Virus record (IMG/VR): IMGVR_UViG_2890906962_000004
Location: 1-64,000 of that record
Source of the DNA: a virus
Lineage: Duplodnaviria; Caudoviricetes
Direction: 5' to 3' (one strand)
Length of the DNA stretch: 64,000 nucleotides
Both the position numbers and the translations under genes were made by a program. Below, piece by piece: positions 4,016 through 50,422 of this stretch (its first letter is position 1; every line of letters starts with the position of its first letter). The notes beneath the pieces were generated by a model. The model was not told the origin of the DNA and made no database searches. It worked only from the letters and a program-made list of their open reading frames with translations.

Positions 4016-4418
4016 TAGCTCCCCCTATTTTCGCCTGGTATGTCATGCGCGCCATTTCAGCACTGTAGTTTAGGCAGTTACCTATAAGGCGTGACGTTGT
4101 TTCGGTACCGAGTTCCCACGATGGCTTAATGGGTAGATTGACGATCATAAGGTAATTAGGTGCCATTTCATCACTGCGCTGGCCCATCTTGGCAATGACT
4201 TTATTACGGATCAGGTTCCAGATTATCGCTTGCGCCAGTGATACAGGTTTCTTGTTGTCTCTTAGGTAGGCGCGCACTTGTCTATTGGTCACGATGACAT
4301 TTTGGCTGTGTGCTTTCACGAATCCCTCAGACAGTTGGTTAACTACCTTTACCCGTGCTTTTCCTTTTAACACTACTTCGTTGCTGGTGGTCATAACGGC
4401 CTCAATACATAAGTGCAA
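4008..4418 (-). CDS. hypothetical protein
   Basis: 136-aa ORF overlapping the next gene; start may be the internal Met (MTTSNE). Confidence 0.65.
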   Translation of the reverse strand: MHLCIEAVMTTSNEVVLKGKARVKVVNQLSEGFVKAHSQNVIVTNRQVRAYLRDNKKPVSLAQAIIWNLIRNKVIAKMGQRSDEMAPNYLMIVNLPIKPSWELGTETTSRLIGNCLNYSAEMARMTYQAKIGGANV

Positions 4419-4509: not shown

Positions 4510-5169
4510 ATGAATACTGATTACGCCGCTAAGCTCGAAAAAGCGAAGCAGCAACAGGAAAGAGCAAGAGAACGTCAAAAGGCCAAACAGAGTAACCCTG
4601 AATACCAGGCCAAAGTGAAGGCTAAGGCTCAAGCAAGAGCCAACAAAGCAGTAGAAAAGCAACGGCAAAAACTCTCTGACCCACTGTATATAGCGGAACA
4701 GAGAGAGAAGAAGAGAAAGGCGATTGAGCGGCGGTTAGAAGTAGCCAAAACGAAAAAGCCCGAATCTAAGCCACCAGCGGCGCGTAAGTCAGGGACTAAA
4801 ATCGCTTATCGAGAACGGTCCACAAGCACTGATGAAAAACGCTTATGGGATGAACTAGGCCAATTACCTTGTGTAGCTTGCCTGGAACACGGGAAAGAAA
4901 GACACCCCGTAGCAATTCATCACATGAGGGGACGCACGTCTGAAAATTGCCATAAACTTGTAATCCCTTTATGTGATTGGCATCACGACACGCCAGCACC
5001 AAAAGAAGTGATTGCATTGCACGAGTGGATGATTCCGCGACATGCGAAAGGCTCTTTAGGTGGCAAGCCGGCGTTCGAAGCGGCTAACGCAAAAGAAACT
5101 GATTTGATGCTGACCGCTTACACAATGATCGGTCGGCGTGAAGAAGCCTTAAAACTTCTTGCTCTTTAA
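4510..5169 (+). CDS. ref: Ref-family recombination enhancement (RecA-dependent HNH-type) nuclease
   Basis: Basic coiled N-terminus, then LPCVAC..HH..G....H..VIPLCDWHH; P1-like position downstream of cre; start taken at ATG 4510. Confidence 0.85.
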   Translation: MNTDYAAKLEKAKQQQERARERQKAKQSNPEYQAKVKAKAQARANKAVEKQRQKLSDPLYIAEQREKKRKAIERRLEVAKTKKPESKPPAARKSGTKIAYRERSTSTDEKRLWDELGQLPCVACLEHGKERHPVAIHHMRGRTSENCHKLVIPLCDWHHDTPAPKEVIALHEWMIPRHAKGSLGGKPAFEAANAKETDLMLTAYTMIGRREEALKLLAL

Positions 5170-36630: not shown

Positions 36631-37034
36631 AGCGTTACCTCTTTCACGACTTCTTTATCCTTACATTGCTTTAATACGCTGATCAGCCCTGAGCTAATCG
36701 AGCCGTTTCCACGCGCTCTTAGCACTGGAATTAAGCCAGCCGGAACATAAAGCGAGGTTGATACACCTTCACGGATTTTTCGGGGTTGCCCTGCATCATT
36801 GGTGCATTGGTCGATTTTCTTCCACGTCCGGTTATGGCTCAGTGAGCTATCACCCGAATAAACGACATTACGGCCAGTTTTCACGGTGATTTTCTCTGCG
36901 AGCGACAAAAGCTCCTTATCTTTGAAAAGCTCTTTTACGATCTGTTTTAGCTCCGCTTTGCTCGTACATCTACGCACGTTACTGCGCTGCCGGCCATTCG
37001 AGTATTCGAGATAAACCGTATATTCCATCGACAA
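36627..37034 (-). CDS. hypothetical protein, possible C-terminal RHH
   Basis: 135 aa; SLYVP....L...GNGSIS.G. Confidence 0.7.
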   Translation of the reverse strand: MSMEYTVYLEYSNGRQRSNVRRCTSKAELKQIVKELFKDKELLSLAEKITVKTGRNVVYSGDSSLSHNRTWKKIDQCTNDAGQPRKIREGVSTSLYVPAGLIPVLRARGNGSISSGLISVLKQCKDKEVVKEVTL

Positions 37035-37113
37035 TTACCTATTAGAAAATAATGAGTTAGGAATTCATTATAATATAGTAATAAAATTATTTTTTTATTA
37101 TTTTTGATTGTTC

Positions 37114-37137
37114 CGCAAATCTCTAACCTCCTAAATT
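37114..37137 (+). promoter_or_regulatory. putative late promoter of the capsid operon
   Basis: CGCAAATCTCTAAC + 4 nt + TAAATT. Confidence 0.8.
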
Positions 37138-37182
37138 CGTCTCTGCCAAAAGTATTATCCGCGCCCTAAATAGGGCAAAAAA

Positions 37183-38892
37183 ATGAGTAACACTCAGCGC
37201 GCGCATGACCGCGCAAAAGATATTAAGAACCGCGCCTCTGCAGTAATGGCGATGACCATTGGTGCAGTTGATTCCTCCGCTTCTCCTGATCTGCAATTAG
37301 AGCAACTGCAAAGATCTGTAGTAAAAAACCCAATGTTTGAAGGCGTTGATGCGCGTTTTGGCGTAACCGTTACTGGTGCGTGGACCGAAGCGTTACACAA
37401 CTACAAAGCATCCCACGGTAAATACCCGTCTGTAGAAGTCCTGGCTAACGCCCACAAATCCCTGCAAAACCTGATGACCGAGAGCGTTAAAGAGTCCGGT
37501 TCAATCAAGGGTCCGAACGCTGCAATGTTTGAGTCTGCAGCTGCAGACATGCGCACCTCTGAGGGTGTGATGAAACAAGCGATTTTCGCTGCAATGATCC
37601 TGCCGGCCGCTTTAGGCGCTGCCACCAGCGATGCGTGTACCTTTGTTCCGTGTGAGCGTGACATTGCCAAGATTTACGAACTGACCAACATCGCCGGTTC
37701 TAACTTTGGTACCTTCCGTGCCGGTGACGAACTGAATATGCACCGCACTGGCGCTTACTCTCAGATGCGCCGTACTGAGCGCTTTGCTCAAGACAACCAA
37801 CCAGACGGCACTAAGAAAGACTTCACGTTTTCTTTAGCAACGTTCCTGGGTACTGATGCGCCAATCATCAAAGGCCGCGCGAAGCTGTTAGTAAACCGCC
37901 GCGTTTCTAAGAAAGATGACTCTGACGGCAACCTGTATTTCAACGACACCGATTTCAACGGCGTTCAATACCAGGCAACCGGTAAAGTTGATTACGCGAA
38001 AGGCATTATCACTGTTTCTTTCAACACCGCACCAGCTGCCGGCACTGAATTAGCCGCACAAGTTGAGATTAACGTTGAAGGTAAAGCAGACCTTATCCCG
38101 GTTATCAACCAGACCATGCGCGAGTATGAGGTTAGCCCTTCACAGTACATCTTAGCGTCTGAGCACACTGTCCAGTCTGCGTCTGACTTACAACGTGAAT
38201 TCGGTTTAAACCTGCAATCTCAGCAATTCCAAGCGATGACTCAATGGTTATCCCACGAAACTGACATGGCGCGTTTACGTACTCTCGTTTTCCATACCAT
38301 CCCGAATTTCTCACGCGAATTTGACGTGGCACTGCCAGAAGGGCAGACCTACGAAAGTTGGGTAGGGATCATGAGCCATGCGGTTAACCGCCTGAGCACC
38401 GAAATGCTTAACCGTAACAAAGAGTCAGGCATCCGTGGTGGCTTTGCTGGTGGTGATGCAGCGAACTACTTACGTTCACTGCCTTCTAGCGTGTTCCAAA
38501 AGGACCCTAACTACGTCCAATCTCCATACGTCCAGTACATCGGTACGTTATTCAACACCATTCGTATCTACGAAGTGCCTAACCCTGCTTGTGAGTCCCT
38601 GCAAGCTGATGGCTTGGATTTCCAACCTTACGACATTTATTTCTACGGTCGCGGCGACAGCATCGGTAAAGCTGGCCTGATCGCAGGTGATGCCGTTCCT
38701 GCAATGCCGTTCGTTCATCCAACCGACAAAAACCTCGTTAACCGCACAACCATTTGGGGCTCTGCGCTTAACGAAATTCACCCACGCGGCGGTGAAAACT
38801 ACTTCTCTCGTTTACGTCTGACCAACTCCAAAGTTGGTTCGTTCGACATGCTTACCGGCAAGCCAATCGAGGCAGTGGTCACGGGAAAGTGA
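37183..38892 (+). CDS. major capsid protein (P1 gp23-like)
   Basis: 569 aa; LGAATSDACTFVP, GLIAGDAVP; precedes sheath as in P1. Confidence 0.9.
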   Translation: MSNTQRAHDRAKDIKNRASAVMAMTIGAVDSSASPDLQLEQLQRSVVKNPMFEGVDARFGVTVTGAWTEALHNYKASHGKYPSVEVLANAHKSLQNLMTESVKESGSIKGPNAAMFESAAADMRTSEGVMKQAIFAAMILPAALGAATSDACTFVPCERDIAKIYELTNIAGSNFGTFRAGDELNMHRTGAYSQMRRTERFAQDNQPDGTKKDFTFSLATFLGTDAPIIKGRAKLLVNRRVSKKDDSDGNLYFNDTDFNGVQYQATGKVDYAKGIITVSFNTAPAAGTELAAQVEINVEGKADLIPVINQTMREYEVSPSQYILASEHTVQSASDLQREFGLNLQSQQFQAMTQWLSHETDMARLRTLVFHTIPNFSREFDVALPEGQTYESWVGIMSHAVNRLSTEMLNRNKESGIRGGFAGGDAANYLRSLPSSVFQKDPNYVQSPYVQYIGTLFNTIRIYEVPNPACESLQADGLDFQPYDIYFYGRGDSIGKAGLIAGDAVPAMPFVHPTDKNLVNRTTIWGSALNEIHPRGGENYFSRLRLTNSKVGSFDMLTGKPIEAVVTGK

Positions 38893-39107
38893 AGTCGGTA
38901 GACGCGCAACCGTCTACCGATAACAGCGCTCAGGTCGCAGCAGCTCAGGCACAAGCCGAAGCTGACGCAGCCGCAGCAGCCCAGGCGAAAGCAGATGCGA
39001 AGGCTAAAGCTGACGCAAAAGCTAAGGCAGATGCGCAAGCTCAAGCCGATGCTGCAGCAGCTCAGGCTCAAGCCGATGCCGCAGCAAAAGAAACGGACGC
39101 TAAATAA
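38889..39107 (+). CDS. Ala/Gln/Lys/Asp-rich ORF, probable -1 frameshift extension of the capsid protein
   Basis: In the -1 frame right after G-GGA-AAG (38883-38889) at the capsid stop. Confidence 0.7.
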   Translation: MKSVDAQPSTDNSAQVAAAQAQAEADAAAAAQAKADAKAKADAKAKADAQAQADAAAAQAQADAAAKETDAK

Positions 39108-39158
39108 CGTCAATCTCTACTAATAAGCGCCCCTCGGGGCGCATTTTAGGAACAAGAA

Positions 39159-40748
39159 ATGAAAAAAATTAGTTTTGCGATGGGCTCAGCAGCCGGCATT
39201 GCAATTAATGAAGTTAACGCAACCGCAACCGGAAGTGTTGGCGCTGGTGGCGCAAGCGCCTTTGCAGGTTTAGTCCTGTCAACGCGTGGTGGCATTAACC
39301 GCGTTTTGAGCCTGACGGCTGATAACTTCACTAGCGTATTGGGTAAAGCACTGCATCCTCGTACTGGCGCGGCATTTGAGCCATACCGCCATGTACAAAC
39401 TGCCGTGTTAGGTGGCAACGGTAACGTTGTGCGCGTACCAGCACCAGGCATGATGATCCCTGCGGTCACGCTGCAGATGTTAGCCAGTGCAGACGGCAAG
39501 GGAACAACCTTTAAAGTGTCGAATACCGCGTTTGCTGCAGGTTCCACCCCTACAGTACCGGCTGGTTCATTCGGAATGATTTACGTTGATGACGGAGACG
39601 CTTCCGTTAACCGTAAAGTGCAGATCGTGCCAGACACGCAAAATACCGCGTTATACGACTTGAACCTAGTCGAAACGGGCAGTGATGGCGTTGATGTGCT
39701 TGTAGAGTCATTACAGGTTTCGTTCGATCCAGAAGCGCGCAACGATATGGGACAAACCGCCTTTATCAGTGCTGCATTAGAGAATAACAACTCACGTTTA
39801 CGTGCAGTTTTGAGCTCTGATGCTCTCGCACAATCTCTTAAAGCGACTGTAACCGCTGACTATACTCCATTCATTGGTGGTACTGACGGTGATTTCACCA
39901 AGGTTACTTCTAACGACTACGCCAAAGCGTTAGCCGTCCTGAAAAAGTCACAGGCAAACTTTACCGCGATCCTTGCGCTAGGATGCTATGACGCACCAAC
40001 GCTTATCGCGCTGAACCAATACGCTGCAGATTGCCGTGTCGATATGTTCTATGACGTGAAAGGCGCGCAAAACTCCACTGATGCAATCAAAGAAGCGAAA
40101 GGCCATAACTTAGGTGGGCAGCACACAGCCGCGCGTTACTACTTCCCATACAGCGCAATGGATAGCTACAGCAGCACTAACGTTGTTTACGGTATCAGCT
40201 GTGATGCGTTCGTAGCGAAAGCGAAAGGCGTTGCCCTGGTCAATGATGTTGGCGGCTGGCACTACTCTCCTGCAGGTACCTCGCGTGGCGTTCTGAACCG
40301 CTCAGGCATTTCTGTATTGCCTAACTTGGACGATCCAGACATGGAAGCGATGTATGCCGCGCGTATTAACTGCGTGTCAGTCACCCGTGCCGGCGATGTT
40401 TACATTGACGACTCTCTGACGACCTACGGTAAAGAAAACTATCTGCGCTTCCAGCACATTAGCTCGCTGTTAAACGCTATCGCGCGTGATTTCTACGCCA
40501 TCGCCGCTGACTTGAAGCACGAGCCAGACGGTATCACCCAAGACGGCCTGACCTCTGCAATGACTAACCTCCTTGAGCGTTATTACGCGGCCAACGCCTT
40601 AGTTACGCCACGCGATGCAAGCCAAGGTAAAGAGCCATTCATCGTGAATGTTCAGCAACTCGACATTGATAAGTGGCAAGTCACCTGGTCCGTCTGTCCG
40701 ACCGGTACCAGCCGCCGCATTGTCGGTACTCCTGTTTTACTGCGCTAA
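39159..40748 (+). CDS. tail sheath protein (P1 gp22-like)
   Basis: 529 aa; GGWHYSPAG..RG, YIDD.LT, LRFQH. Confidence 0.9.
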   Translation: MKKISFAMGSAAGIAINEVNATATGSVGAGGASAFAGLVLSTRGGINRVLSLTADNFTSVLGKALHPRTGAAFEPYRHVQTAVLGGNGNVVRVPAPGMMIPAVTLQMLASADGKGTTFKVSNTAFAAGSTPTVPAGSFGMIYVDDGDASVNRKVQIVPDTQNTALYDLNLVETGSDGVDVLVESLQVSFDPEARNDMGQTAFISAALENNNSRLRAVLSSDALAQSLKATVTADYTPFIGGTDGDFTKVTSNDYAKALAVLKKSQANFTAILALGCYDAPTLIALNQYAADCRVDMFYDVKGAQNSTDAIKEAKGHNLGGQHTAARYYFPYSAMDSYSSTNVVYGISCDAFVAKAKGVALVNDVGGWHYSPAGTSRGVLNRSGISVLPNLDDPDMEAMYAARINCVSVTRAGDVYIDDSLTTYGKENYLRFQHISSLLNAIARDFYAIAADLKHEPDGITQDGLTSAMTNLLERYYAANALVTPRDASQGKEPFIVNVQQLDIDKWQVTWSVCPTGTSRRIVGTPVLLR

Positions 40749-45577: not shown

Positions 45578-46405
45578 ATGAACCTTCCATCATTTCCCCT
45601 ACCTTCACAGCCTTTTGCGGAGGTTATCTTTCGCTCGCCTACCGTGCGCGATTCTATGGAATACATCGACATTCAGCCGTTTGATACGGAGAAAGTCACC
45701 ACTAAATATCTCAATGCCTTGCAAGTCGGTGAGATCAACGATAGCGGCTTATGGACCCAACAAGACCGCCGCACCGCCTTGTGGTGGATTTTCGTTAACT
45801 CTCGTGACAGCGCTTATCTGACGTACCAATACGAGTGTGGCCACTGTAAAGACTTCCACTTTGCAGACGTAGATATGAGTGATTTAAGCCAGGGTTATTC
45901 AGTCCTAGAAGTGCCACCAGCGATCGAGTGTGAAATCCCCGTAGAAGGCAATCCGGTTAAGTGGCAGCTAGTGCCTCTCGATGGCCGATCAGCTGAAATG
46001 CTTGAATACATGAAATACCAGTTACCACAAGCCGGCAGCGAAGGCTATGAAGCCGCACTGACCGAACTACGCATAGCCGAACTGGCACTAATGACCCGAA
46101 CGAAAGATGACCCGGAAGACTACAAAGCCGCAGCCGATCACCGTATGGACATGATTAAACGCATGGACCTTAACAGCGAGTTTTCGCCGCTGGTGGCGCG
46201 TATTCAGCTAATGACGCGTGATTTAAAGCATGGCTTGGATATGGACGTAGAGAAAACCGGTGTATTTCTCAACCTACCACAACAATCCTGCAAGAAAACC
46301 AAAAAGGGGGAGCCGCAGCTATTCACAGCACTGCGCGCCCCATTTCGCAATACAGAATTTATCTCACGGATTAGATCGGAATGGATGGATAACCATCATC
46401 AATAA
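45578..46405 (+). CDS. PmgB-like tail/baseplate assembly protein
   Basis: WT.QDRR.ALWWIF, Y.C.HC; precedes tape measure. Confidence 0.75.
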   Translation: MNLPSFPLPSQPFAEVIFRSPTVRDSMEYIDIQPFDTEKVTTKYLNALQVGEINDSGLWTQQDRRTALWWIFVNSRDSAYLTYQYECGHCKDFHFADVDMSDLSQGYSVLEVPPAIECEIPVEGNPVKWQLVPLDGRSAEMLEYMKYQLPQAGSEGYEAALTELRIAELALMTRTKDDPEDYKAAADHRMDMIKRMDLNSEFSPLVARIQLMTRDLKHGLDMDVEKTGVFLNLPQQSCKKTKKGEPQLFTALRAPFRNTEFISRIRSEWMDNHHQ

Positions 46406-46535
46406 CTTGGCCCTATACGGCTATCAGCCTGTTAGTGATGTTGAGAGCCTAGCCAGTTGGCGCGCCCTCGATATGAACAAAGCATTGGAAGAAAAATATA
46501 AAAATGCCGCCAAGCAGGGCAAGGGGGGAACTTGA
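46260..46535 (+). CDS. small tail-assembly ORF overlapping pmgB (start uncertain)
   Basis: C-terminal WITIINNLALYGYQPVSDVESLASWRA looks protein-like; stop coupled to tape measure start. Confidence 0.5.
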   Translation: MYFSTYHNNPARKPKRGSRSYSQHCAPHFAIQNLSHGLDRNGWITIINNLALYGYQPVSDVESLASWRALDMNKALEEKYKNAAKQGKGGT

Positions 46536-49500
46536 AACAAGAAAAGACTCAGCTAGGGATAATTTTAGCGATTGAGGAAGCCAGTACGGAGCAGCTCAAG
46601 GCGTTATCCCGTATTGAAAATGCACTCTCAACAAACGGCCCCGTCACCACGCAAACAACCGTAGCGCCTACGCCTAGCGCCTCAATGCAAGGTGTAACGG
46701 TTAAAGCTAAGCGTAGGACTCGCGGTGCGCAATCAAGCGTACCAGTGAGTGATAATGCTCAGAATGATGACCTAGCCAAAAAGATTGCTGAGCAAATCGC
46801 TAAGGTGAACACACCGTTTGATAAGCATCGGGCACAGCGCAAAGAGCAGGAACGCGATAGCAAGGGACGTTTTATCTCTGCCGAAGCCCTGCGTAATTTG
46901 AGTGAATCGAAGCTATACAATACCACGGTTGCCAGTAATGAGCGGGTTAATGCCGCTGAGACGGACAGCGGTGTAGCCCGTCAAAATGCGGTAAGTGCTG
47001 GCGTAGCTGACTTGCCTCTGATGAAAAACATTAGAAGCCTTAGTGAGACTATTGCTGAACAGACCTCGGAAGTCGTTCGGATCGATAAGAACGGGCGCAA
47101 GCGTGACAGTAACGGCCGTTTTCTCTCGAAGGAAAAAGCCGATGAATTGAAAGCAAAAAACGGCGATAAAACCAAAAGTGCAGACGGTAAATTACAAGAC
47201 GGTTTCCTAAAGCGATTAGGCTCCGCGCTGACTGAGCATGGCAATAGAAACGTGCAAAATGACGGCGCTGATATTGTTGGTACCGCAGCTGGTGGCGCAC
47301 TTTGGCAAATGGGGCGCGGTGCGTGGGATATTGCGAGCACCGCGAAAGATAACGCGGTTTCCGTCAATGATTGGCGTAAAAAGCACTTTTCCCGTGGTCC
47401 TGAAAGCAAGTCAACTGACACAGCCGGTCATGCTGAGGTAAATAACCATCCAACATCGGGCAATCTGGCATTAAAACCTGCCGTTATTTATCCGCCTGTC
47501 ACCGCTAAGCCTGTAACGCCCTCAAACGCTCCTGACGCCTCCAAAGAAATATTTGAGGATAACGCCAAGAAAGAGCAAGTTAAGGCCACAGAGAAGCAAA
47601 CAGCCACGCTCAGCGCCAAAGATGACGCAATTATTAAAAACCAAGAGGAAGAACTAGAACTCTTAAAGAAGATTGCGCACAACGGCTCTGCTAACGATCC
47701 CCTGGGGAATGGCCTGTTTAAAAAACTATTCGGTAAATTCGGTCGCCGTGATGGGGCTGGCCGTAGCCGGAGTCAATCGCGCCGGAATAAGAAATCGGGC
47801 AGATTAGAGCGGCTAAAGGACAAGTTTAGGCGTAAAAACCCTAGCACTGAGCCGAATGTAGACGAAAAGGCGAAAAAGTCTGGTAAGCCTAGTAAGACCA
47901 AACCCACCACAACAGCCAACGATAAATCAAAGCCTGAAACGACTGATAAAGCGAAGACGTCCACGGCCGACATCGACAAAGCCAAGCCAAAAGTGAGCAC
48001 GGCCAGTAATACAACACCTGAAAAAGCCACTAAACCAACGTTGAAAGACGGGGGGAAAATTACCGTTCAGTCAGAAAAATCGGTAATGGCTGCAGGGGGC
48101 GTCAGTTTTGGCGAAGCCGCTAATGATGCCGTAAGTGCCTCTGAAAAAGTTGGCGGTAAAACGTTAGCAAAAGAAGCCTTTAAAACAGGCGGTAAAGTTG
48201 CGCTGAAAACCGGACTTAAAACCATTCCGATCATTGGTACCGCAGCTGGTGTCGCATGGGATGCGGCAGACGGTTACAACGACACCGAAGGGCAGAAAAA
48301 AGCCTTTGATCTAAAAGACGGCCAAGAGGCTACAAAGCGCGAAAAAACTGAAATGTCAGCCGCGAATGTAGCCGGATTAGGGGGATTGGTACCGCTTGCC
48401 TCGCAAGGTGCATCATGGCTGGCTAACAAAGCCGGATTCACGGATAAGACTGACGCACTAGACATTGATACATCTGATCTCGCTAAGGGGATCCATAAAG
48501 GCGTGGGTGCGGTGGGTGCTGCGGCAACTGGTGCGTATTCCCTGGCTAAAGGATTGTTTAGTACCAGCAGTGATGACAAGGCCGCGCAAGCCGCACAAAT
48601 GCAGCAAGTTACTGATATTACCAATGCTGTTAAATCGGGATCTGCCGATACGGTTAACGCTATTGACCGACTCACTAAACAGTTAGAAGGGGGAAAATTC
48701 GGTGAAGATGGCGTTGGTTCCGTAGGGACCAAAACAGCCGATTACCAAGCACCGGCAACAAGTACCATTGTTTCTGGCCCTAACGGCTTAAATATTGGCG
48801 GTATACACGCGGCGAACCGTAACTTTAGAAACAATAATTTCGGTAACTTGAATTTTGTTGGTCAAGAAGGCGCGGTACTGGAAGACACACCAGGGAAAGG
48901 ACAAGCGCGCTTTGCCCGTTTTGCGACACCGGAAGACGGCTTTAGGGCACTGGCTAACCAAGTCTCAAGCTATGCAAACGGCACAAGTAAAGCTGCAGGC
49001 TACCAACAGCTTAATACCGTTCAGGACATTATCAGTAAGTGGGCTCCACCTAACGAGAACGACACCGGAAAATATATCCAGACCATATCGGCAAGTCTCG
49101 GCGTTAAGCCTACCGATAAAATCAACACTGCCGATCCGCAAGTGATGACGAAACTTATCCGGGCTATCTCGACCTATGAGGGCGGAAATCCAACGGTAAG
49201 TGATGGGTATATTCAAAACAGTATCGGCTCTGAGGACGCGACTACGCATAAATGGGGTGGCGGTAGCTACAGCAAAGAAAGCCAGGAGTACATGGCTAAG
49301 CATGGCATTAGCGCTGCCAAAGGAATGCAGCCGGTAGCTAACGCAACCGCGACCAGTGCCGCTAAAACCGCTGAAACCATCAAGGCCGCAAGCCTTCCTG
49401 ATGCTGAAAACCCAGCAACCGTTACGGCCACGCCTAGCACCACTGATGAAAGCAGCCTATCCAGTAAGTTGCCACGTATCGCTGAGGTTATGTCCGATAT

Positions 49501-50422
49501 TGGCAACACTAACTGGCTCGATAAGGGGGCTGAGGGTTCCGCGAAAGCCGATCATTACCTCACAGAAAAGCTTGAGAAGGTATCAGGTCAGCATGTTGGT
49601 TTTCGCCGTGCAACGTCTGATCTAACGCTTCCGAAAAATTCCGGCCCGGTGCCGGAGTCGATTAAAGCCGCCATGGCATCGCCAGACCAGATAGCGAAGG
49701 CGCAAGCACCTGACTTGTCAGTGCGCGACTACGGACAGCCAAGCAGTAACGCTGTTACACCAGTCTCACAAGCCGATGATGGCGTGATCCCTGCAAGTAT
49801 GGTCAATCGTGCTTTCCCTGTATCACCGGCACAGCAAGGAAAAGGTTTAGGCGGCGCGCTGAGTCAACAGGCTACACCTGAGAAGGGCGGCGAAGGGTTC
49901 TTTGGTTCTATCGGGAGTTTCTTTTCTGGCGTAGGCCATTCAGCCATGAAGGCGGTACCACAGGCGTTAAGCACCGTGGGCGATATTGCTATGCCGGCCG
50001 CTCAAGGGTTACTCGGAAACATCGTGGGGGATCTAGGTGGACAAGTAACTAATTCCATCGGTTCGCCAATTATTAAATCCCTCGCAAGCCCATTTATTAA
50101 CAAAGGAGTAAGCGCCGCTAATAGTTTTATTCAATCCCCTCAACAAGCCGTTTCATCGTTCAGTATGCCGCAAGTCTTACCCACCGTGACTGACCTTGCC
50201 AAAAGTGGCGCAAGCAATGCCATGCAGCAAATCACCGCGCAGATGCCGCCGGACATAGCCAAAGCTCTGCAACAGCTAGTGGATCTGACTAAGCAATCAC
50301 TGGACGCTCAGAAAAACAAAGGCGACATGAAACCAGACGTTGTAACGCACGGCGGCCAAAAAGCGCCTAAGCATGACGACAAATTTAGTGACAGTGCGCT
50401 CGATGCGCTATTGGAGGACTAA
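46532..50422 (+). CDS. sit: tape measure protein with muralytic domain (Sit-like)
   Basis: 1296 aa; RNNNFGNL..FARF.TPE.G.RAL..I..WAP..ENDT..Y lysozyme-like domain. Confidence 0.85.
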   Translation: MKQEKTQLGIILAIEEASTEQLKALSRIENALSTNGPVTTQTTVAPTPSASMQGVTVKAKRRTRGAQSSVPVSDNAQNDDLAKKIAEQIAKVNTPFDKHRAQRKEQERDSKGRFISAEALRNLSESKLYNTTVASNERVNAAETDSGVARQNAVSAGVADLPLMKNIRSLSETIAEQTSEVVRIDKNGRKRDSNGRFLSKEKADELKAKNGDKTKSADGKLQDGFLKRLGSALTEHGNRNVQNDGADIVGTAAGGALWQMGRGAWDIASTAKDNAVSVNDWRKKHFSRGPESKSTDTAGHAEVNNHPTSGNLALKPAVIYPPVTAKPVTPSNAPDASKEIFEDNAKKEQVKATEKQTATLSAKDDAIIKNQEEELELLKKIAHNGSANDPLGNGLFKKLFGKFGRRDGAGRSRSQSRRNKKSGRLERLKDKFRRKNPSTEPNVDEKAKKSGKPSKTKPTTTANDKSKPETTDKAKTSTADIDKAKPKVSTASNTTPEKATKPTLKDGGKITVQSEKSVMAAGGVSFGEAANDAVSASEKVGGKTLAKEAFKTGGKVALKTGLKTIPIIGTAAGVAWDAADGYNDTEGQKKAFDLKDGQEATKREKTEMSAANVAGLGGLVPLASQGASWLANKAGFTDKTDALDIDTSDLAKGIHKGVGAVGAAATGAYSLAKGLFSTSSDDKAAQAAQMQQVTDITNAVKSGSADTVNAIDRLTKQLEGGKFGEDGVGSVGTKTADYQAPATSTIVSGPNGLNIGGIHAANRNFRNNNFGNLNFVGQEGAVLEDTPGKGQARFARFATPEDGFRALANQVSSYANGTSKAAGYQQLNTVQDIISKWAPPNENDTGKYIQTISASLGVKPTDKINTADPQVMTKLIRAISTYEGGNPTVSDGYIQNSIGSEDATTHKWGGGSYSKESQEYMAKHGISAAKGMQPVANATATSAAKTAETIKAASLPDAENPATVTATPSTTDESSLSSKLPRIAEVMSDIGNTNWLDKGAEGSAKADHYLTEKLEKVSGQHVGFRRATSDLTLPKNSGPVPESIKAAMASPDQIAKAQAPDLSVRDYGQPSSNAVTPVSQADDGVIPASMVNRAFPVSPAQQGKGLGGALSQQATPEKGGEGFFGSIGSFFSGVGHSAMKAVPQALSTVGDIAMPAAQGLLGNIVGDLGGQVTNSIGSPIIKSLASPFINKGVSAANSFIQSPQQAVSSFSMPQVLPTVTDLAKSGASNAMQQITAQMPPDIAKALQQLVDLTKQSLDAQKNKGDMKPDVVTHGGQKAPKHDDKFSDSALDALLED

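Follow-up and report, generated by a model that had tools for sequence, protein, structure and literature searches.

The stretch of DNA analysed here, called the window throughout, comprises positions 1 to 64,000 (64,000 nt) of the 92,174-base virus record IMGVR_UViG_2890906962_000004; it belongs to a P1/D6-like phage-plasmid and includes the late-gene region. Within that region lies the gene for the major capsid protein, whose last codons, stop codon and immediate downstream sequence form a candidate cassette for programmed −1 ribosomal frameshifting that would add a 72-residue alanine-rich tail to some capsid subunits (Table 1). The upstream gene of this cassette is clearly that of the capsid, as in the T7 10B type of arrangement: its product matches PHROG 1014 (E 3e-174) and the solved P1 Gp23 chain 9ukm (E 2e-150), and it is 42.8% identical to P1 gp23 over 99% of the length and 60% identical to the major capsid protein of phage D6.

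Table 1. Features of the capsid–sheath interval in the window.
Feature	Coordinates	Strand	Remarks
Major capsid protein gene	37183..38892	+	Zero frame, 569 codons + TGA; homologue of P1 gp23 and D6 major capsid protein
GAGG, Shine-Dalgarno-like tetramer	38869..38872	+	10 nt 5′ of the heptamer; putative role
Slippery heptamer G_GGA_AAG	38883..38889	+	In phase with the capsid frame, adjoins the stop
−1 frame tail	38889..39107	+	72 codons + TAA (39105-39107); would be read Val-Lys-Ser-Val-Asp... after a slip
Zero-frame stop TGA	38890..38892	+	TAG in relative L095, TAA in relative L096
Predicted frameshift-stimulating hairpin	38894..38921	+	Pairs 38894-38904 with 38911-38921; loop 38905-38910
GC-rich hairpin GCGCCCC-TC-GGGGCGC, then ATTTT	39127..39142	+	Between tail reading frame and sheath gene
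Tail sheath gene	39159..40748	+	PHROG 1036; homologue of P1 gene 22

A Slippery Heptamer at the Capsid Stop Codon

The 3′ end of the capsid gene reads ...GTC ACG GGA AAG TGA, and checking the phase against the whole open reading frame (ORF) confirmed what the initial annotation had claimed, namely that the heptamer, divided as G / GGA / AAG, directly abuts the stop. Its claim that the −1 frame leads straight into a second reading frame holds as well: read as GGG AAA GTG AAG TCG GTA GAC..., this frame is open for 72 codons, from the GTG at 38889 to the TAA. G_GGA_AAG is a heptamer listed as highly shift-prone in Escherichia coli, and the single E. coli tRNA-Lys, which pairs better with AAA than with AAG, is what makes both G_GGA_AAG and A_AAA_AAG prone to shifting (Atkins 2016 review, PMC5009743).

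The chance of such a placement was estimated with a crude set of 66 non-overlapping window ORFs of at least 100 aa. Only the capsid ORF (1 of 66) has a heptamer of the form X_XXY_YYZ adjoining its stop, and in-phase heptamers occupy 62 of the 17725 codon positions in the set. There are four in-phase X_XXA_AAG sites, and the one in the capsid gene is the only one to combine a long −1 ORF with a strong hairpin behind it. Of the 43 Gly codons in the capsid gene, moreover, the one in the heptamer alone is GGA, and across three late genes GGA accounts for 8 of 104 Gly codons. The placement of the heptamer exceeds chance.

One further in-phase site, T_TTA_AAG at 46222-46228, lies in a PmgB-like head morphogenesis gene (45578..46405, PHROG 1854); with a −1 ORF of 50 codons and a weak downstream fold (−3.3 kcal/mol), it is probably a product of chance.

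Conservation within the Window's Lineage

Three other distinct sequences belong to the same lineage: a Rosenbergiella metrosideri contig (L004) whose capsid is 98% identical to that of the window, and two metagenome contigs, L095 and L096, with capsids 95% and 84% identical. Conservation of GGGAAAG before the stop in relatives, which the initial annotation had proposed as a check, is borne out in all three. The heptamer stays constant with TGA (window and L004), TAG (L095) or TAA (L096) behind it and with ACG or GCG in front of it, a codon whose encoded residue varies and whose third-position G does not. The −1 ORF is likewise open in all four sequences, for 72 codons in the window and L004, 71 in L095 and 77 in L096, and every insertion or deletion (indel) within it is a multiple of three.

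The codon that lies over the stop in the −1 frame is GTG in the window and L004 and GTA in L095 and L096, such that a start codon overlapping the capsid stop, the mark of translational coupling, is limited to two of the four sequences. The tail ORF of L095 has no ATG, GTG, TTG, CTG, ATT, ATC or ATA anywhere, and ATA is the sole start-like codon in that of L096. Upstream of the heptamer the −1 frame is open for just 7 codons in L095 and for 1 codon in L096. Because these two tails contain no ATG, GTG or TTG and the −1 frame is closed upstream, the sole way into them leads through the capsid frame and the heptamer at its end.

In L004 the heptamer, stop and hairpin are as in the window, and the tail differs by two 27-nt in-frame indels. 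Contigs from four further public runs show no listed difference at the heptamer or stop and one change in the hairpin loop, and their tails differ in length by +30, +30, −27 and −36 nt, again all multiples of three. This length polymorphism is located at 38935-39060 and consists of in-frame repeat indels of 27, 30 and 36 nt, built on a unit close to Ala-Lys-Ala-Lys-Ala-Asp or Ala-Gln-Ala-Gln-Ala-Asp.

A near-identity DNA search with 37000-39300 found no match in the phage collection, from which the window's own genome records were possibly excluded. A capsid homologue occurs in 6 of 401 genomes of L004's family and in 1 of 7 of its genus, with no further member of the window's lineage among them. 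The closest relatives among proteins, P0002 (79% identity) and P0003 (66%), both end in ..AGK.

The Downstream Hairpin

Directly behind the stop lies a predicted hairpin of 11 bp with the loop CGCAAC and a folding energy of −17.9 kcal/mol (z −5.0 against dinucleotide shuffles, 0 of 200 of which fold as well). It begins 4 nt past the heptamer, and the 9-pair core that is common to all relatives begins 6 nt past it, about the distance expected of a −1 frameshift stimulator. The equivalent hairpins of L004, L095 and L096 have energies of −17.7, −20.7 and −17.3 kcal/mol, with z values across the lineage of −4.5 to −5.7. When the four sequences are aligned (alignment A5), 93% of pair cells are paired, a share that falls to 20-50% once the partners are slid out of register. 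Two of the 11 pairs in L096 differ at both positions (U-A to C-G and C-G to U-A) and 1 has become a wobble pair; the pairing of the stem is kept there although the encoded peptide differs. In sum, a 3′ structure is retained in all four lineage sequences, with two compensatory pairs.

This is not the hairpin to which the initial annotation had drawn attention. The latter, which follows the tail ORF, does exist (39127-39142; −17.1 kcal/mol with flanks), but it resembles a terminator-like hairpin found in P1 between genes 23 and 22, and the candidate stimulator is instead the hairpin right behind the heptamer. A GC-rich hairpin of the same kind (GCGCCCC...GGGGCGC) stands directly 5′ of the sheath gene in P1, JK004, D6 and the Pantoea and Leclercia relatives as well, the P1 counterpart (L002) lying at about 4734-4752, and it may represent a conserved partial terminator or processing signal. 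The only Rfam match, to isrG on the minus strand of the repeat region, was rejected as sub-threshold (21.9 bits against a gathering score of 100).

The Wider Family and the Sister D6 Clade

To place the window's site in its family, the capsid end was compared in 96 sources, consisting of the window and loci from phage, plasmid, IMG/VR, metagenome and genome collections; L091 and L093, which match on the minus strand, were skipped. The sources include many near-copies, and L089 and L004 represent a single genome. GGGAAAG with a long −1 ORF occurs in 5 of the 96, and AAAAAAG with a −1 ORF extending at least 15 codons past the stop in 23. Three sources carry an insert but no heptamer, 61 (the P1, Pantoea and Leclercia types) have neither insert nor heptamer, and 4 are truncated. 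Heptamer and insert go together: the 31 loci with a capsid–sheath gap of more than 200 nt are made up of 28 with a heptamer and 3 with an in-frame tail, and none of the 61 loci lacking the insert has such a heptamer or in-frame tail. When 64 unique capsid cores, without duplicates and partial rows such as L096, were placed in a quick maximum-likelihood tree, all insert-bearing rows formed one clade (Shimodaira–Hasegawa-like approximate likelihood ratio test, SH-aLRT, 96), with the window's lineage as the sister of the D6 clade.

In the D6 clade (23 loci) the capsid ends GAA AAA AAG followed by TGA, TAG or TAA, which places A_AAA_AAG in phase, and the junctions comprise 15 distinct sequences among 22 loci. 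The −1 tail of this clade is conserved, has 35 residues and reads V[MA]VANVSVSPTSLDVDEGETIAA...; in D6 itself its ORF is annotated as a separate small gene, orf50. At one locus of the clade, L055, 6 nt separate the heptamer from the stop, and no start codon of any kind occurs in the −1 ORF. The consensus fold 3′ of the D6-clade heptamer gives no clean local stimulator hairpin behind A_AAA_AAG.

Two IMG/VR loci, L052 and L053 (about 4190-4290), carry a D6-type tail (...VEGVTLSPASITVSAGDEITAGNTKKDS) that is fused in frame to the capsid, giving proteins of 597-599 aa, and the same in-frame fusion is found in the proteins P0034 and P0037. Since it is naturally fused in frame in L052 and L053, the D6-type tail belongs to the capsid protein. 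The third insert-bearing locus without a heptamer, the E. coli plasmid NZ_CP031917.1 (L007, 2492-4291), whose 599-aa capsid has an in-frame D6-type tail, was discounted as evidence: its sheath gene is split into several coding sequences and the frame of its orf49 is broken, and the in-frame tail is likely the result of homopolymer sequencing errors.

In-frame extensions of other kinds are found at the same end of the protein. An Ig-like Big_2 domain is present at the C-terminus of 8 of 84 protein hits, which have lengths of 652-674 aa (P0044, P0046-P0049, P0053, P0057 and P0059), and other homologues, for example P0021, which ends ...DQSDADAQTQAEAEAAAAAAAAKSTKSTK, have low-complexity tails rich in Ala, Gln, Asp and Glu. 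Because homologues carry either kind of tail in frame, the capsid C-terminus must tolerate extensions.

The D6-type −1 tail is similar to the opening strands of a Big_2 domain (L001, phage D6, 4680-5115), and the same layout is seen in L026, L045, L047, L055 and L052. The separate downstream gene orf49 of D6 (92 aa) matches only positions 22-79 of the Big_2 profile; its alignment with P0044 covers the final 58 residues of the in-frame Big_2 domain of that protein, and it has a second, partial first-strand segment at its end. A BLASTP comparison of the 35-aa D6 tail with a relative possessing the full domain gave no alignment. From these partial resemblances one might envision an Ig domain that is split between the D6 capsid tail and a separate protein, with the tail docking by strand donation.

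Probable Programmed Frameshifting and Competing Explanations

Taken together, these observations make it very likely that a programmed −1 ribosomal frameshift gives rise to a minor 641-residue isoform of the capsid protein. The initial annotation had anticipated an isoform of about this length, and the proposal is supported by the retained heptamer, the start-less tails of L095 and L096, the compensated hairpin and the parallel in the D6 clade. In L095 and L096 the site is kept although neither offers a route for independent initiation.

The proposed mechanism would be a tandem slip, in which tRNA-Gly on GGA and tRNA-Lys on AAG re-pair one base back onto GGG AAA. The hairpin core, 6 nt downstream and at the mRNA entrance of the ribosome, would promote the slip, and the adjacent stop would favour it too; Weiss et al. 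reportedly found in 1987 that an adjacent stop stimulates shifting (“shifty stops”). Ribosomes that do not slip would stop at TGA and release the 569-residue capsid protein, and those that do, a minority, would decode GTG as valine and append 72 residues to give the 641-residue form, with the junction ...Thr-Gly-Lys-Val-Lys-Ser-Val-Asp.... We infer that the slip takes place, that the slipping ribosomes are the minority, that the long form is assembled into the shell and that its tail points outward as one helix about 9 nm long.

The yield and final size of the two forms can be envisioned by analogy with P1 and lambda. P1 gp23 sheds its first 120 residues on maturation (PMC9024508), and the Glu-Ser at the maturation cleavage site is invariant in the capsid alignment (E117/S118); if the window's protein matures as gp23 does, the two forms would have about 452 and 524 residues. 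The P1 shell has T=13 symmetry, with 775 copies of gp23 and no cement proteins (PMC12810830), and the products of the lambda frameshift stand in a ratio of 30:1 (Atkins 2016 review, PMC5009743). With a lambda-like rate and a P1-like shell, roughly 25 of 775 subunits might be decorated.

Among the competing explanations, the one that survives best, though it is unlikely, is that the tail ORF is a separate small gene translated from GTG 38889 by termination-reinitiation across the GTGA overlap, with the heptamer being incidental. Four-base stop/start overlaps are a common arrangement for translational coupling, and a GTG does overlie the stop in the −1 frame of the window and L004. However, ORF, heptamer and hairpin all persist in L095 and L096, where the codon over the stop is GTA and the ORF has no canonical start. 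The only Shine-Dalgarno-like bases near the window's GTG (GGGA) end 2 nt before it, which is too close for initiation under the usual spacing rules, and the hairpin, which starts 3 nt past the GTG, would occlude a free initiation site. The product of such a gene is, moreover, not on record as a 72-aa protein in the protein collection searched (see below).

Less probable still is that the region is a decaying remnant, i.e., an ancestral in-frame tail that was severed by a frameshift mutation and left a functionless −1 frame and heptamer behind. Relatives with in-frame tails are known (L052, L053, P0021 and others), and P1 and many other relatives are tail-less, as this history would have it. 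It is difficult to see, however, how decay would leave an ORF open for 71-77 codons down to 84% capsid identity with in-frame indels only, a heptamer that is constant while the stop and the preceding codon vary, a rare Gly codon within that heptamer, and a hairpin maintained through compensatory changes.

The poorest candidate of the three has the hairpin acting purely at the RNA level (as a processing site, attenuator or minus-strand terminator), with the Ala-rich ORF an accident of GC-rich repeats; a consensus scan does list the 38894-38921 stem as a minus-strand terminator-like site, and GCN-rich repeats are often open in several frames (a 104-aa antisense ORF is present), but both flanking genes lie on the plus strand, so that a minus-strand terminator would have nothing to act on, the −1 frame alone is open among the three plus frames, with all indels multiples of three, a separate terminator-like hairpin already stands at 39127-39142, and the in-phase heptamer and its conservation would go unexplained. 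The minus-strand terminator reading in particular was rejected, there being no minus-strand gene that converges on the site. Transcriptional slippage, considered for the run of seven A in D6, is impossible for the window (A3, G3), and stop-codon read-through was rejected on account of further zero-frame stops immediately after the first.

Several points nonetheless weigh against a programmed frameshift. P1 and 61 of the 96 sources are without the site, and since it is absent there, the feature must be dispensable for building such shells. The window's lineage is thin, consisting of four distinct sequences, with capsid identities of 95% or more among three of them. One sequence, L096, accounts for the compensatory changes in the hairpin, and with four sequences 34 of 500 column shuffles reach the observed covariation. 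If the two outer pairs of the hairpin form, the spacer is just 4 nt, at the short end for stimulators. In the D6 clade the consensus fold 3′ of the heptamer has 23 pairs and 0 compensatory ones. Finally, the GTG over the stop in the window and L004 would permit some termination-reinitiation there, alongside frameshifting.

A broader, more tentative idea, to which we give well under even odds, extends programmed frameshifting to the whole insert-bearing clade: the 3′ end of the D6/Rosenbergiella capsid gene would be an ancestral recoding “port” at which heptamer and tail cargo have been swapped, with the shift holding the decorated subunits of each shell to a low, tuned number. The cargo may then be, in D6, an Ig-strand tail that perhaps docks a separate Ig protein and, in the window, a “whisker” formed by an Ala-rich single helix.

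The 72-Residue Tail

Of the 72 residues in the tail of the window, 34 are Ala, 9 Asp, 9 Gln and 8 Lys, with Lys, Asp and Gln alternating. It matches no Pfam family at E up to 0.01 and no PHROG family. AlphaFold2, run on the single sequence, predicts one helix spanning residues 9-71 (mean predicted local distance difference test score, pLDDT, 90), which when extended would measure about 9 nm (63 residues × 0.15 nm). An Ig-like extension of the Big_2 type is therefore not what the window tail represents, given the absent Pfam and PHROG families and the predicted helix. The description of the tail as a TolA-like appendage in the initial annotation stands in part: a long helix is predicted and the composition is alike, but no Pfam family is matched and the likeness is compositional only. 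The exact 72-aa protein is absent, in both the window and L004 versions, from a collection of 15 billion proteins.

As for function, our best guess is that the tail is a surface decoration, used for weak adhesion or stabilisation and tolerated on a part of the subunits only, because relatives carry Ig-like or low-complexity in-frame tails at the same C-terminus.

Comparison with Known Systems

Frameshift-extended capsids are known from T7, T3, Lactobacillus phage A2 and the Listeria phages A118 and A500 (−1) and PSA (+1), as set out in the Atkins 2016 review (PMC5009743), which likewise bears out the statement in the initial annotation that T7 makes its extended capsid 10B by frameshifting. 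The extension of T7 gene 10 is non-Ig-like according to that review (PMC5009743), and the window tail, too, is without an Ig family. The sites differ considerably, however: T7 uses a G_GU-type site with a stimulator more than 200 nt downstream (PMC5009743), whereas the window has an X_XXA_AAG heptamer adjoining the stop and a local hairpin. The window phage is also, unlike T7 and T3, a P1/D6-like myovirus phage-plasmid, and the capsids have no common sequence family in the scans made.

A2 (gp5A/gp5B), A118, A500 and PSA make two capsid products from one gene by means of a shift, and the same is proposed for the window; the A2 and Listeria extensions are, however, Ig-like (PMC5009743), in contrast to the predicted single Ala-rich helix of the window, which has no Pfam family. 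The review further describes capsid tails that are in frame in some relatives and attached by a shift in others (PMC5009743), a pattern that recurs across the window and D6 clade. Within the window's own family, the in-frame Big_2 capsids, at 46-53% identity, have their extension at the same C-terminal attachment point as the window tail, but there it is a folded Ig-like domain on every subunit and involves no recoding.

A further comparison is with D6 and the D6-like plasmid prophages of E. coli and Salmonella. There, as in the window, an in-phase X_XXA_AAG heptamer precedes the stop of a homologous capsid gene (60% identical in the protein), either directly or at a distance of 6 nt, and a −1 tail and then a GC hairpin follow. 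Unlike the window, D6 has A_AAA_AAG, a 35-residue Big_2-like tail and the separate Big_2-like gene orf49 downstream. No frameshift appears to be annotated at the D6 site.

Lambda G/GT and E. coli dnaX would share their mechanism with the window and differ from it in purpose, the one serving a tail-assembly chaperone and the other a polymerase subunit truncated by the shift. Lambda G/GT is generally credited with the heptamer GGGAAAG, and in dnaX the hairpin lies about 6 nt downstream, as in the window. The upstream Shine-Dalgarno-like element of dnaX has a questionable counterpart in the GAGG tetramer, which is present in the window, L004 and L095 and is not at the same place in L096; that it acts as a 5′ stimulator as in dnaX is doubtful.

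In the literature covered, which did not extend to the D6 genome paper, we found no report of a capsid frameshift in a P1-like or D6-like phage. The view of the initial annotation that the arrangement was undescribed for P1-like phages thus agrees with what was found, except that the site belongs to the D6/Rosenbergiella branch and P1 is without it. What is new here is the phage group, the close packing of heptamer, stop and hairpin, a helical tail that is not Ig-like, and the use of one site with differing heptamers and cargo.

Implications and Further Observations

With the window, a phage group to which the laboratory phage D6 and many plasmid prophages belong gains a recoding site that is well supported; PLSDB holds 87 records with capsids 60-80% identical to that of the window. 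In this group the tail ORFs lack annotation or are entered as small genes in their own right. That the capsid C-terminus of a single family takes very different additions, in frame or by a shift, bears on the evolution of phage decoration and points to this terminus as a natural site for display on a T=13 shell. The compactness of the site, with its heptamer, stop and simple hairpin, also makes it convenient for reporter studies. Should the recoding-port idea prove true, the whisker would represent a capsid appendage of a new kind that serves its own function, e.g., adhesion in plant, insect and silage habitats.

Elsewhere in the window, an ORF of 91 codons (46260-46535), which has no PHROG match, overlaps the 3′ end of the pmgB-like gene in another frame and ends where the gene for a 1296-aa Sit-like tape-measure/transglycosylase protein (46532..50422) starts.

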